From the NCBI GenBank assembly GCA_013044295.1, contig JABEUU010000169.1, positions 1 to 49,491 on the forward strand: a DNA stretch of 49,491 nt. The letters run 5' to 3'. The notes under the pieces are model-generated. The model was not told where the DNA came from. It saw only the letters and a program-made list of their open reading frames with translations, and did not search any database. The number at the start of each line of letters is the position of its first letter. Within the stretch, counting starts at the first letter, position 1. A program made the translations under genes and the position numbers. This DNA is from Candidatus Dormiibacterota bacterium (GTDB lineage: Bacteria; Chloroflexota; Dormibacteria; Aeolococcales; Bog-877). Below are positions 1,331-3,512 of this stretch, in pieces.

Positions 1331-1347
1331 CCTGGGGGCCAGGTCAG
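1327..1347. terminator. Hairpin between convergent recO and cysS-GT2
   Basis: Perfect 9-bp inverted repeat CTGACCTGG-GGG-CCAGGTCAG containing both stop codons; no U-tract. Confidence 0.5.
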
Positions 1348-3512
1348 TCGGGCTGGTGCTCTGACGCGCCGGCCAGGAGCAGGTCGGGCCGGTGGTGCCA
1401 GCGGTCGTAGAAGCGACGGAAGTTCAGCCGGCTCAGCCGCTCCCGCTCGTCCGGATCGGTATCCTCCCAGAGGCGGTGCTGATGCATCACCATGGGCAAG
1501 TCGGGCAGGCGCCGCTGGCTGAGCCCAAGCGCCCGGAGACCGAAGCACAAGTTGAAGTCCAGCATTCGGTAGAAGCGGAAGCGCTCGTCGAGCAGACCCA
1601 GCTCGCTGAACCGGTGGCGTCGCAGGCCCAGGCAGTATCCGTCGATGGCGTCCACATCCAGTTCCTCGGAGTCGAAGAACTCCCGCATGTCTGAACTTCG
1701 GGCTCCCCAACGGCCCACGGCGCCAACCGTGGGGTCCTGTAGGGCTGCCAAGATCGGGGCCACGTAATCGCCCTCGGCCTCAACCCCTGTGTCCAGGATC
1801 AGCAAGGCCTCGCCTACCGCCGCGCGCACCGTGACGTTGCGGGCGGTGCCCTCTCCCAGGCGATGGTCGGCTCGAAACACCGTGATCTCGGAATGCTGCG
1901 TGGCGGCGAGCTGCAGCAGCCGAGAAGTCGCCTCGTCGGCATCGTTGTCGACCACCAGGATTTCTATTCGATGGGCACCGGCATGCGCCAGCAGGCTGTC
2001 CAGGCAGCGGCTCAGGTCGGCCGGGTAGCCCTCCACGACCAGGCTGACCGAGAGCTCCAACCTGTCGGCCTCCAGGCGGCGGTCAGAGACCTCGAGCGGC
2101 GAGGAGATGAGGCCGCGGCGCAGGTCGAGGGCACTCACCCGCCGGTAGCTGGTGTGGTCTGGGGCGTCCTCAGGCACCACGCGGAGGCTCACCAGCGAGC
2201 TCCGCTCGCGGTCGGCTTGGAAGAAGTTCCCCGCTGCCCGCGAGAGCTCGCGGGACCGGGCCACCGACTCCCATCCGCCCGCTGCTGGTGCCGGGGCGGG
2301 GGGCATGTCAAGCCCCAGGCCCAGGAGCTGGTCGCTTCGCCTAAGGCCGAGCGCTCGAGTGGCCGGCGTGAGGCGCTGATCTCTGGCGTACGCGAAGACG
2401 TCGGCCAGCGCCCGGGGTAGGTCGAGGTCAGCCTCCAGGTCGGCGCGCACCGTCTGGAAGAGCTGCTCGGCGGACCCCTCGTCGGCAGTTCCGCGGTCGT
2501 CGGCGGCCAGACGCCGCAGGCGCTGCAGGCCCCGCTCGGCGGCAGCCAGTGCCAGTAAGGTGAAGTTGAGCCGGCTGCGATATCGCACCGTGGCGCAGAG
2601 GAACCGGAAGGAGAGTGGGTCGAAACCCCTCGCCTCGAGGTCTTCCAGTGTGTAGACGTTGCCGGACGACTTGGCCATCTTCACGCCATCGGCGAGCAGG
2701 TGCTGGCCGTGAACCCAAAGTTGCACGAACTGGCGCCCGGTCGCGCCCTGGCTCTGGGCCAGCTCGTCCTCGTGGTGGGGGAAGATGTTGTCCACGCCGC
2801 CGGTGTGAATGTCGATCTGCTCCCCGAGGTAGGCCATCGACATGGCAGAACACTCGATGTGCCAGCCCGGGAACCCGGTCCCGAATGGGCTCTCCCAGAC
2901 CATCAACTGGCGCTCGCGATCGGCCTCCCTCCAGAGTGTGAAGTCGGCCTGATGGCGCTTGGAGGGATCTGGCTCGGCGCCGACCCCCACCAGCAGCTCG
3001 GCCAGGGAGTTGCGCGAGAGCGCCCCATAGGCGGAATACGCCGTGGTGTCGAAGTAGACGCTGCCGCCGGCCCGGTAGGCGAGGCCCAGGTCGAGCAGCT
3101 TGGTGATCAGTTCTAGCATCTGGGGGACGTGGTCGGTGGCCCGGGGAAAGACATCCGCCGGCTCGATCCCGAGCCCGGCTTCCGCCCCGTGGAACTCCCG
3201 TTCGAACTCGCCCGCTATGTCGCGGGGAGAGCGTCCCGCCGCTAGAGCGGCGGCGATGACCTTGTCGCCGCCGCGCTCGGCCATCTCCTGGCGCATGTGG
3301 CCGACGTCGGTGATGTTTTTGACATGGCGCACCTCCCAGCCCTGAGCCCTGGCGATGCGCTTGATCCAGTCCGCCATCAGGTAGGTGCGCAGGTTGCCGA
3401 TGTGAACCGAGCGGTAGACGGTGGGGCCGCAGCTGTACATCGACAGGCGACCCGGGCGTAGTGGAGTGACCTCCTGGACCTGACGGGAAAGGGTGTCGTA
3501 GAGTCGGAGCAC
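1344..3512 (-). CDS. cysS: Cysteinyl-tRNA synthetase fused to a C-terminal GT2 (GT-A fold) glycosyltransferase domain, ~722 aa
   Basis: GTG at 3512 (VLRLYDTLSR); CysRS motifs MYSCGPTVY, HIGN, NITDVGH, PRATDH, DFTLWR, PGWHIECSAMS, DIHTGGVDNIFPHHEDE, KMAKS; anticodon-domain-like RELSR..NF..ADRER..ED; then GT2 motifs LSRCLDSLL, EILVVDND, ARN, LLILDT, LLDERF (~2060-1344). The ORF-track extension to 4553 is antisense to glyQS. Confidence 0.9.
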   Translation of the reverse strand: MLRLYDTLSRQVQEVTPLRPGRLSMYSCGPTVYRSVHIGNLRTYLMADWIKRIARAQGWEVRHVKNITDVGHMRQEMAERGGDKVIAAALAAGRSPRDIAGEFEREFHGAEAGLGIEPADVFPRATDHVPQMLELITKLLDLGLAYRAGGSVYFDTTAYSAYGALSRNSLAELLVGVGAEPDPSKRHQADFTLWREADRERQLMVWESPFGTGFPGWHIECSAMSMAYLGEQIDIHTGGVDNIFPHHEDELAQSQGATGRQFVQLWVHGQHLLADGVKMAKSSGNVYTLEDLEARGFDPLSFRFLCATVRYRSRLNFTLLALAAAERGLQRLRRLAADDRGTADEGSAEQLFQTVRADLEADLDLPRALADVFAYARDQRLTPATRALGLRRSDQLLGLGLDMPPAPAPAAGGWESVARSRELSRAAGNFFQADRERSSLVSLRVVPEDAPDHTSYRRVSALDLRRGLISSPLEVSDRRLEADRLELSVSLVVEGYPADLSRCLDSLLAHAGAHRIEILVVDNDADEATSRLLQLAATQHSEITVFRADHRLGEGTARNVTVRAAVGEALLILDTGVEAEGDYVAPILAALQDPTVGAVGRWGARSSDMREFFDSEELDVDAIDGYCLGLRRHRFSELGLLDERFRFYRMLDFNLCFGLRALGLSQRRLPDLPMVMHQHRLWEDTDPDERERLSRLNFRRFYDRWHHRPDLLLAGASEHQPD

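Follow-up and report, generated by a model that had tools for sequence, protein, structure and literature searches.

A cysteinyl-tRNA synthetase gene that continues into a glycosyltransferase

The DNA considered here, positions 1 to 49,491 of contig JABEUU010000169.1 (assembly GCA_013044295.1) from Candidatus Dormiibacterota bacterium, is referred to at its full length of 49,491 nucleotides as the window. On its minus strand it carries a single gene whose product joins a complete cysteinyl-tRNA synthetase (CysRS), including an anticodon-binding domain of the CysS_C type, to a C-terminal glycosyltransferase (GT) domain of family GT2 with a GT-A fold. The gene and its parts are as follows; structural models are from AlphaFold2 (AF2).

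1344..3512, minus: whole CysRS-GT2 fusion gene (protein P0001), 722 residues, GTG start at 3512, stop at 1344-1346
2538..3467, minus: class I CysRS catalytic domain, residues 16-325 (PF01406, tRNA-synt_1e, E 3e-86)
2280..2537, minus: CysRS helical bundle, residues 326-411 (TIGR00435 coverage; AF2 helices 319-397; E. coli CysRS alignment)
2139..2279, minus: CysS_C-type anticodon-binding alpha/beta domain, residues ~412-458 (alignment to the E. coli CysRS C-terminus)
2061..2138, minus: linker, residues 459-484 (26 residues), with a conserved 'SS..EV.S' stretch (alignment)
1383..2060, minus: GT-A fold GT2 domain, residues ~485-710 (PF00535, profile matches in the Protein Data Bank (PDB), AF2, Foldseek, VIA)

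An initial reading of the sequence alone, without database searches, had described one uninterrupted frame here, and this description held: the 722-residue frame is intact, and homologues share its architecture. In the list of open reading frames (ORFs) the minus-strand frame spans 1344..4553, with 347 further open codons upstream of the true start at 68% G+C. This extension overlaps a divergent class II aminoacyl-tRNA synthetase (aaRS) gene on the plus strand (3690-5003; tRNA-synt_2b and HGTP_anticodon), and all 24 aligned homologues begin at the position matching 3512 (MLRLY...); for both reasons the gene is taken to be 1344-3512. Automatic ORF calling would over-extend it upstream.

The junction between the two parts is real. 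A stop or frameshift near 2060-2140 would have undone the fusion, and none is present: contigs of four public sequencing runs from four studies (X2 record 1, X4 record 10, X9 record 24, X8 record 17) cross this region free of gaps, and the sole indel reported in run contigs lies at 1334, outside the fusion frame. Near-identical copies of the gene (half or more of the sampled words) occur in seven public runs, five labelled as mine drainage or mine tailings metagenomes, one as sediment and one unlabelled. These top seven runs represent 4 studies and the listed runs 10; no RNA runs with the gene are among those listed.

The CysRS part and its anticodon-binding domain

The sequence-only reading had also proposed a full CysRS with all four zinc ligands and an anticodon-domain-like segment, and both proposals were borne out. 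Against the NCBIfam model TIGR00435, whose cut-off is 340 bits, the fusion protein reaches 351.6 (352.9 when the whole genome was scanned), covering model positions 1-465 of 466, and in a phmmer alignment its residues 1-458 pair with 1-460 of the 461-residue E. coli CysRS (1li5/1u0b), whose aligned C-terminus reads '[35 protein letters not shown]', the segment ending in '...[15 protein letters not shown]'. The solved CysRS structures 8qhp, 6ujd, 3sp1 and 1li5 could likewise be aligned with this part. The class I signatures HIGH and KMSKS, here HIGN and KMAKS, and the Cys/Cys/His/Glu zinc set align to those of the E. coli enzyme. CGPTVY (C28), HIGN, WHIEC (C221), FPHHE.E (H246, H247, E248 and E250, within FPHHEDE in the window's protein) and KMAKS are invariant in 24 of 24 full-length fusions. 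The catalytic domain further carries the insertion 'NITDVGHMRQE...GDK', hereafter the VGH type. On these sequence features the CysRS part is apparently a catalytically intact enzyme of the tRNA-charging type.

In CysRS, the C-terminal alpha/beta domain reads the GCA anticodon, a structural role reported from the work on 1u0b. The corresponding domain of the fusion matches E. coli CysRS residues ~405-460 and is modelled as two helices followed by a beta-hairpin (helices 414-426 and 430-442, strands 445-449 and 454-458); R425, D434, R437 and D449 are conserved, and the R, AD, R, D pattern is kept. The Pfam family PF23493 matches relatives of the window protein, and does not match the window protein itself at E<=0.1, its motif being degenerate there. 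The full-length AF2 model has a mean predicted local distance difference test (pLDDT) score of 86.4 and a predicted template modelling score (pTM) of 0.78, the linker lying at pLDDT 68-85.

The C-terminal GT-A domain

The C-terminal domain is confidently modelled as GT-A. Besides tRNA-synt_1e over residues 16-325, Pfam finds Glycos_transf_2 (PF00535) at residues 498-617 with E 2.6e-13 and a score of 50.7 bits, the cut-off being 23.3. A profile of 19 such domains matched solved GT2 enzymes in the PDB, K4CP chondroitin polymerase standing at E 2e-19 and 6p61, at near-full coverage, at E 2e-15, with GalT1, heparosan synthase and others ranked lower. The AF2 model of the domain (pLDDT 92, pTM 0.89) shows the alternating strand and helix order of the GT-A fold; Foldseek placed ppGalNAc-transferases at its top ranks (E 3e-14 and a TM score of 0.72 for GalNAc-T2), and the VIA structure search, which is independent of Foldseek, returned PcManGT (Z 20.6), GalNAc-T1 (20.1) and SpsA (19.2). 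The domain of about 240 residues behind a short linker in the initial description thus models as predicted.

Its motifs comprise VVDN, ADHxLGE, LLDTxxE, GRWG, FRFYRxLD (with D652), HxHRxW (with H677 and H679) and ERERLSxxNFRRF. D652 is invariant and pairs in the alignment with the catalytic acid of K4CP, which lies in 'GGED' (HWGGED); the H-x-H pair and several Arg and Tyr residues are invariant as well. NCBIfam has no model for the combined CysS_C-GT2 family; the best match, MftF, has a cut-off of 280 bits and is reached at only 46-56.

A stand-alone CysS_C-GT2 module

When the GT domain was used as the sole query, the matches included fragments and also complete proteins of ~300 residues. 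Their sequence opens with 'M..P.EV..LLDER..AR..RDW..ADALRD.I..LGW.V.D...GST.RP' and then runs on into the GT subfamily seen in the fusions; their N-terminal piece is PF23493, the 'Cysteinyl-tRNA ligase anticodon binding domain' (CysS_C), and the catalytic CysRS domain is absent. One such protein, P0130, has relatives in at least 2505 clusters at E<=1e-20, and among the 120 listed, all carry PF23493 and 117 also PF00535. A profile of the module found 1056 representatives (50% identity) at E<=1e-30, and ESM Atlas clusters from Chloroflexota and Actinomycetota bear the automatic name 'Cysteinyl-tRNA ligase anticodon binding/Glycosyl transferase family 2'. The best 150 profile matches show essentially two architectures, CysRS-fused (~9) and stand-alone (~35), and no GT fused to another aaRS domain is among them. 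Matches of 379-593 residues were considered as candidate new architectures and rejected: two of the eight scanned begin inside PF01406 and are N-truncated fusion fragments. Five of the eight have GT2-type Pfam matches only, and P0317 (438 residues) consists of CysS_C, GT2 and ~80 extra C-terminal residues.

The stand-alone unit occurs in Actinomycetota, Limnocylindria and some Dormibacteria-class genomes, whereas the unit fused behind CysRS is found in Dormibacteria and several other Chloroflexota lineages. Within the window's phylum, 34 of 151 sampled genomes carry the module, 17 of them as the fusion and 17 in stand-alone form only, with both forms in G084; two unpublished genomes in this sample, G038 and G145, are module-negative. 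Sixty-four of 301 sampled Actinomycetota genomes, the unpublished G233, G239, G299 and G419 being counted in the sample, also have it; a sixty-fifth match (G151) was discarded as generic GT2 only. Two module copies, at G088:C66:12068-13024 and G142:C26:6183-7067, lie inside long open frames of 644 and 867 residues, which may be G+C-rich read-through or additional fusions.

That CysS_C and GT-A form a conserved unit, a predicted anticodon reader for tRNA-Cys joined to a GT-A domain, rests on the agreement of the two forms. In a CysS_C consensus built from 24 stand-alone GT proteins, the conserved positions are those of 67 genuine CysRS C-termini (R..AR...D(F/W)..AD.LR..L...G..V.D...G), and because these positions are shared, the two would be expected to bind the same ligand. 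When 14 fused C-terminal parts were aligned with 11 stand-alone proteins, 21 columns proved invariant, 4 in CysS_C and 17 in the GT domain (E578, R632, R646, Y648, R649, D652, H677 and H679 among the latter). The 17 GT residues are kept at 33-67% identity to the window's copy, as would be typical of a working active site. The window fusion itself displays the family signature LLDTSxE, GxWG, FRFYRN.D, HxHR.W and ERERLS..NF.RF. In the window protein 26 residues separate CysS_C from the first strand of the GT domain; in P0130 and P0164 the distance is ~16-20.

Distribution, paralogy and origin of the fusion

Whether the architecture recurs in other genomes was a check suggested by the initial reading, and it does. 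Protein searches returned at least 120 clusters, and the best 120 matches listed share the architecture, all being 694-765 residues long with PF01406 and PF00535. Their sources are Dormibacteria/Dormibacteraeota at 60-98% identity (P0002 being 98% identical to the window protein) and Chloroflexota, Anaerolineae and Dehalococcoidia at 46-53%. A full-length fusion is present at 18 of the 80 genome-contig loci retained, and a further locus, on a short contig, has part of it. In the phylum sample the fusion was found in 17 of the 151 genomes, 16 with a full-length copy plus G068, in which two matching pieces lie within one open frame of 703 residues. None of the sampled genomes of the same order (0/5) or the same class (0/10) has it, and the distribution is accordingly patchy.

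The fusion is an extra copy and not the only CysRS. The window genome (G000; 2.30 Mb, 91% complete) encodes an ordinary cysS on contig C128, at 450.6 bits higher-scoring than the fusion and devoid of the VGH insertion, which makes the fusion gene a paralogue and settles the sequence-only reading's question about a second, canonical cysS. At least one further CysRS-like gene is present in 16 of the 17 fusion-bearing genomes, the exception, G039, being 57% complete; for G068, whose four listed CysRS matches may include both fusion pieces, the cautious count is at least two others. In each of four fusion genomes examined closely, the fusion is accompanied by a full-length stand-alone CysRS and by a short paralogue of 405-436 residues.

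Phylogenetic analysis of the CysRS domain (95 rows; IQ-TREE in quick mode, LG+G4; the partial L029, L095 as a duplicate of L081, and L002-L005 left out) united the 23 fused rows in one clade, with a support of 90 in the Shimodaira-Hasegawa-like approximate likelihood ratio test (SH-aLRT). This clade nests in CysRSs bearing the insertion 'NITDVGH...GEDK', which is also seen in the solved enzymes 6ujd and 3sp1, and its sister (94) consists of 21 stand-alone CysRSs, from Actinomycetota plus one Limnocylindria and one Dormibacterota metagenome-assembled genome. Branch lengths of the fused clade are ordinary, not elevated. The short Chloroflexota paralogues group with the MshC of Streptosporangium (SH-aLRT 99) on the opposite side of the tree. 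Because the fusions are nested in genuine CysRS and away from the MshC clade, they are not relatives of MshC and derive from a tRNA-charging enzyme.

The short paralogues merit an observation of their own. They are devoid of the anticodon-binding domain (L096-L099 in G111, G075, G104 and G001; L123:2303-3562 in G058), and one spans the MshC model end to end at 373.9 bits, below the cut-off of 485. These hints raise the prospect of a mycothiol-like ligase in Chloroflexota.

The phylogeny also bears on an option raised in the initial reading, in which the fusion itself would make an undescribed Cys-sugar low-molecular-weight thiol analogous to mycothiol or bacillithiol, its CysRS part acting like MshC and its GT domain building the sugar acceptor. 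The window genome is in keeping with such a role insofar as, at 91% completeness, neither a match to BshC, GCS2, GshA or EgtD nor a third paralogue of the MshC kind was found in it, and as it encodes four deacetylases of the PIG-L (LmbE) type; a GT4 gene standing before the module and cysS in the genome G029, discussed below, also belongs to the MshA/BshA superfamily, its scores lying far below the cut-offs of those models. However, the fusion reaches only 228.9 bits against the MshC model TIGR03447 (cut-off 485.1), it keeps its anticodon-binding domain, its branch lies inside tRNA-charging CysRS while the short paralogues take the place beside MshC, and a separate MshC-like gene is present in four of the four fusion genomes examined. 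Moreover, the GT subfamily is commonly found, as the stand-alone module, with no Cys-activating domain at all. A thiol-forming fusion is thus improbable, and since the conserved unit is a tRNA-Cys anticodon reader plus GT-A, a tRNA-Cys-directed glycosyltransferase is favoured over it. The broader idea from which that option came, a CysRS paralogue that binds tRNA and is linked to the chemistry of sugars, is supported by the sequence data, which point to an anticodon domain, a catalytic part unlike MshC and a separate cysS.

Genomic context and co-occurrence

In one genome of the window organism's class (G029), the two halves of the fusion are encoded side by side by separate genes:

L122 (G029:C24:38000-49000), 1569-7325, all on the same strand: obg, nadD-like cytidylyltransferase gene, GT4 gene, CysS_C-GT2 gene, VGH-type cysS

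The stand-alone CysS_C-GT gene (P0445, 293 residues) overlaps the start of the VGH-type cysS by 19 nucleotides on the same strand, and this cysS passes TIGR00435 at 384 bits; the gene pair mirrors the fusion, split in two and with its parts in the opposite order. A tblastn search of 62 non-fused loci found no case of the module beside a VGH-type cysS. Among the 301 Actinomycetota genomes, 64 have the module, 70 a CysRS of the type that is sister to the fusions and 60 both, with 4 having the module only, 10 the CysRS only and 227 neither. This co-occurrence is a weak statistic, as kin are not independent and both genes may mark the same lineages. In G165, G450 and G334 the two genes lie hundreds of kilobases apart. 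Because both proteins carry CysS_C and cannot share one anticodon at once, the GT module must meet tRNA-Cys alone in these split systems.

The fusion gene keeps no universal neighbour among 19 loci. A Peptidase_S51 gene (cyanophycinase/dipeptidase E family) adjoins it in 4 of the 19 (L006:7189-7947, L007:7202-7891, L018:2563-3339 and L024:10028-10900); these loci belong to two distant lineages and differ in orientation, and the gene is absent from the window. MeaB lies downstream in three Dehalococcoidia loci and ~7 kb away in a fourth, and a class II aaRS gene and recO flank the fusion only in four Dormibacteria-type loci.

Within the window, an Rfam scan of positions 1-6000 gave no match at E<=1, and hence no T-box, and a promoter and terminator scan of 1000-4000 found neither. 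The minus-strand genes at 5851-9460 probably form a threonine pathway cluster:

5851-7119, minus: PALP enzyme with an N-terminal Cys-rich stretch, threonine-synthase-like
7128-8813, minus: aspartokinase-type AA_kinase with ACT domains
8531-9460, minus: GHMP kinase, homoserine-kinase-like

Because the AA_kinase and GHMP kinase frames overlap as called, the start of one of them has probably been misplaced.

tRNA-Cys genes

PMC9976931 gives the anticodon G34-C35-A36 and U73 as the major identity elements of tRNA-Cys. A tRNA-Cys covariance model built from 6 genes was used to search 34 genomes that carry the module and 30 that do not, and the genes were read with aragorn. All 66 tRNA-Cys genes read (from 30 carrier and 35 non-carrier genomes) have the loop CUGCAAA, with A37 throughout; there is one gene per genome, save for two identical copies in G115. 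A variable loop of 4 nucleotides is present in 27 of 30 carrier genes and 26 of 36 non-carrier genes, two of these 36 having been misparsed by the script and found by eye to have a 5-nucleotide loop. A tRNA-Cys specific to carriers was at one point a candidate, since carriers seemed in a pattern search to lack the usual tRNA-Cys pattern, and was rejected, this difference being an artefact of a pattern that missed the 4-nucleotide variable loop. The search recovered no tRNA-Cys for carriers G000, G041 and G051 or non-carriers G074 and G046. In the window genome (G000), aragorn called 42 tRNAs, none of them tRNA-Cys and one a tRNA-SeC(tca); the best covariance-model match there, at C172:7337-7406, scores 57 bits.

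A tRNA-Cys-directed glycosyltransferase?

We propose, as a tentative reading that could well be right yet falls somewhat short of an even bet, that the CysS_C-GT module is a tRNA-Cys-directed glycosyltransferase. CysS_C would bind the GCA anticodon of tRNA-Cys in the manner of a CysRS, and the GT-A domain, being tethered by only ~16-26 residues, would be placed beside the anticodon arm, where it would transfer a sugar from a nucleotide-sugar donor onto the tRNA. The target nucleotide would most plausibly lie within the anticodon stem-loop but outside positions 34-36, with A37 as a candidate. In the fused form, which may also charge tRNA, charging and modification could be coupled on one bound molecule. 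Glycosylation of tRNA was one of three options in the sequence-only reading, and it emerges as the best supported of them while keeping its inferential character. The bolder proposition, that there is a large, unrecognised family of bacterial tRNA-Cys-specific glycosyltransferases guided by CysS_C to the anticodon arm, and that its Chloroflexota/Dormibacteria form both charges and glycosylates, is more doubtful still, though we consider it a serious possibility.

Several observations weigh against this proposal. On the side of the tRNA, no feature of tRNA-Cys specific to carriers and no second tRNA-Cys gene is seen among the 66 genes, a conserved neighbour with a role in tRNA modification is lacking at the loci examined, and a literature search found no glycosylated tRNA-Cys nucleoside in bacteria. 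On the side of the protein, the CysS_C motif is degenerate in Dormibacteria including the window, where a Gly is lost and one residue is added; ~11 of the 64 actinobacterial matches align only from P0130 residue ~55-83 and may be GT-only or diverged at the N-terminus, and some actinobacterial open frames of 244-288 residues are too short to leave space for CysS_C, which is thus not strictly obligatory. In the GT domain, the second Asp of the DXD motif is absent throughout (LLDT[GS]), D574 being kept and E578 invariant, and the uridine-binding Asp of 'VVDN' is kept in the fusions, whereas most stand-alone proteins have VVANAP at this place; the domain may accept a different donor, or glycosyl transfer may not be its function at all. 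Finally, at 15 actinobacterial module loci (L101-L115), a cluster of an extracytoplasmic function (ECF) sigma factor and a zf-HC2 anti-sigma factor is found in 10 and a MaoC (HadAB-like) gene in 8, as exemplified by L112:1045-3012, where a HadB-like MaoC dehydratase gene lies 4 nucleotides upstream of the module and the ECF sigma gene 4 nucleotides downstream, followed by the zf-HC2 anti-sigma gene. Such HadAB/ECF sigma surroundings would also be in keeping with a role related to the envelope.

The actinobacterial context leads directly to a different view, in which the GT-A domain glycosylates an acceptor other than RNA (an envelope polymer, lipid or protein) and CysS_C or the CysRS body serves as a tether or regulator, e.g. 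as a sensor of the abundance or charging of tRNA-Cys. The closest folds are indeed GT2 and GT27 enzymes acting on polysaccharides, teichoic acids and peptides, the sigma/anti-sigma pair stands directly downstream of the stand-alone gene in the 10 loci just mentioned, a GT4 gene directly precedes the module in G029, and the ~11 actinobacterial copies noted above may do without CysS_C. Yet no membrane segment or signal was seen, as judged by eye only, and no neighbourhood is conserved across phyla. The CysS_C residues, moreover, are strictly kept in thousands of stand-alone proteins, a pattern suggestive of real anticodon binding. We regard a non-RNA acceptor as rather unlikely on balance, if worth keeping in view.

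The altered DXD motif bears on another alternative, that the GT-A domain is a non-catalytic or otherwise catalytic appendage, for instance a nucleotide or ligand sensor or an oligomerisation domain, and that the protein is simply a second CysRS isoenzyme. Degeneracy of DXD in all members and loss of the uridine-binding Asp in many stand-alone ones are what this view would predict, and the GT-A and nucleotidyltransferase folds overlap, Mth528 being matched at Z 11.7. The 17 invariant residues, with D652 as the equivalent of the catalytic Asp and the H-x-H pair, are difficult to reconcile with it, as is the persistence of the GT domain where there is no CysRS body, and we give it little credence.

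Likewise of low probability is a reaction at the aminoacyl end of the tRNA, whether formation of S- or N-glycosyl-Cys on Cys-tRNA-Cys or the use of Cys-tRNA as a Cys donor to an amino-sugar nucleotide. The fusion appears to retain an intact site for Cys activation and tRNA charging, the module is predicted to recognise tRNA-Cys through CysS_C, and the S-glycosyltransferases of glycocin synthesis (SunS) are GT2 enzymes to which the PDB profile search gave weak matches (7msk/7msp, E 0.006-0.01). The geometry speaks against it: the acceptor end of a tRNA lies ~70 Å from the anticodon, whereas in the stand-alone protein the GT domain is separated from the anticodon reader by only ~16-20 residues. 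Nor is there a conserved neighbouring gene whose enzyme would use up the product.

Comparison with known systems and meaning

Paralogues and fusions of aaRSs have repeatedly revealed tRNA-linked chemistry, as exemplified by MshC, GluQRS, LysX and the amino-acid:carrier-protein ligases. If the module does target tRNA-Cys, it would represent a new class of RNA-modifying enzymes in the soil phyla Actinomycetota and Chloroflexota, including Dormibacteria, and would place a new modified nucleoside on the tRNA that decodes a redox-critical amino acid; it would also be the first bacterial pathway to a glycosylated tRNA nucleoside, and the fusion would be the first of an aaRS with a glycosyltransferase that modifies tRNA. 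If instead the status of tRNA-Cys is linked to sugar metabolism or thiol synthesis, that connection would likewise be undescribed. The family is invisible in current databases because its fused members, where named, are annotated as plain 'cysteine--tRNA ligase' and its stand-alone members as 'glycosyltransferase'. Curated family libraries name only the two generic domains and hold no family for the combination, and a full-text literature search found no paper on a CysRS-glycosyltransferase fusion, on a glycosyltransferase joined to any other aaRS or on a CysS_C-GT protein.

Compared with bacterial CysRSs (E. coli 1li5/1u0b; 6ujd, 3sp1), the fusion has the same end-to-end alignment, zinc ligands, class I signatures and anticodon domain; it differs in ~265 additional C-terminal residues that form the GT-A domain, in being a second copy and in passing the family cut-off only just. 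With MshC (3c8z, 8hfm), the Cys:GlcN-Ins ligase of mycothiol synthesis, which has no anticodon-binding domain and makes no use of tRNA, it has in common the fold of the catalytic domain (E 8e-53 over residues 2-378), a descent from CysRS and a link to sugars; unlike MshC, it retains the anticodon domain, and it falls outside the MshC model and clade.

Functional precedents come from two other aaRS derivatives. Mycobacterial LysX is a LysRS fused to an MprF lysyl-phosphatidylglycerol synthase, and GluQRS (YadB), a paralogue of GluRS, glutamylates the queuosine of tRNA-Asp; the former couples an aaRS to a second tRNA-using enzyme and the latter shows an aaRS paralogue modifying a tRNA. In the present fusion, by contrast, the partner is a soluble GT-A glycosyltransferase. 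The activity proposed for it resembles that of vertebrate QTGAL (B3GNTL1) and QTMAN, which add a sugar to Q34 of tRNA-Tyr and tRNA-Asp to yield galactosyl- and mannosyl-queuosine and which are, to our knowledge, the only well-known enzymes that glycosylate an anticodon-loop nucleoside of specific tRNAs. These enzymes are eukaryotic, however, and are devoid of an aaRS-derived recognition domain.

With generic GT2 and GT27 enzymes (K4CP 2z86, PcManGT 6yv7, SpsA 1h7l, ppGalNAc-T2 4d0z) the C-terminal domain has the GT-A fold in common, at Z 19-21 and a TM score of 0.72. It departs from them in having D-T-(G/S) and an invariant Glu in place of DXD, in the family-specific motif H-x-H-R-x-W and the ERERLS..NF.RF helix, and in being preceded nearly always by CysS_C. 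What appears to be new here is the joining in one architecture of two familiar components: an aaRS-derived enzyme, known as paralogue or in fusions, and a GT2 enzyme that carries a predicted RNA-reading domain.

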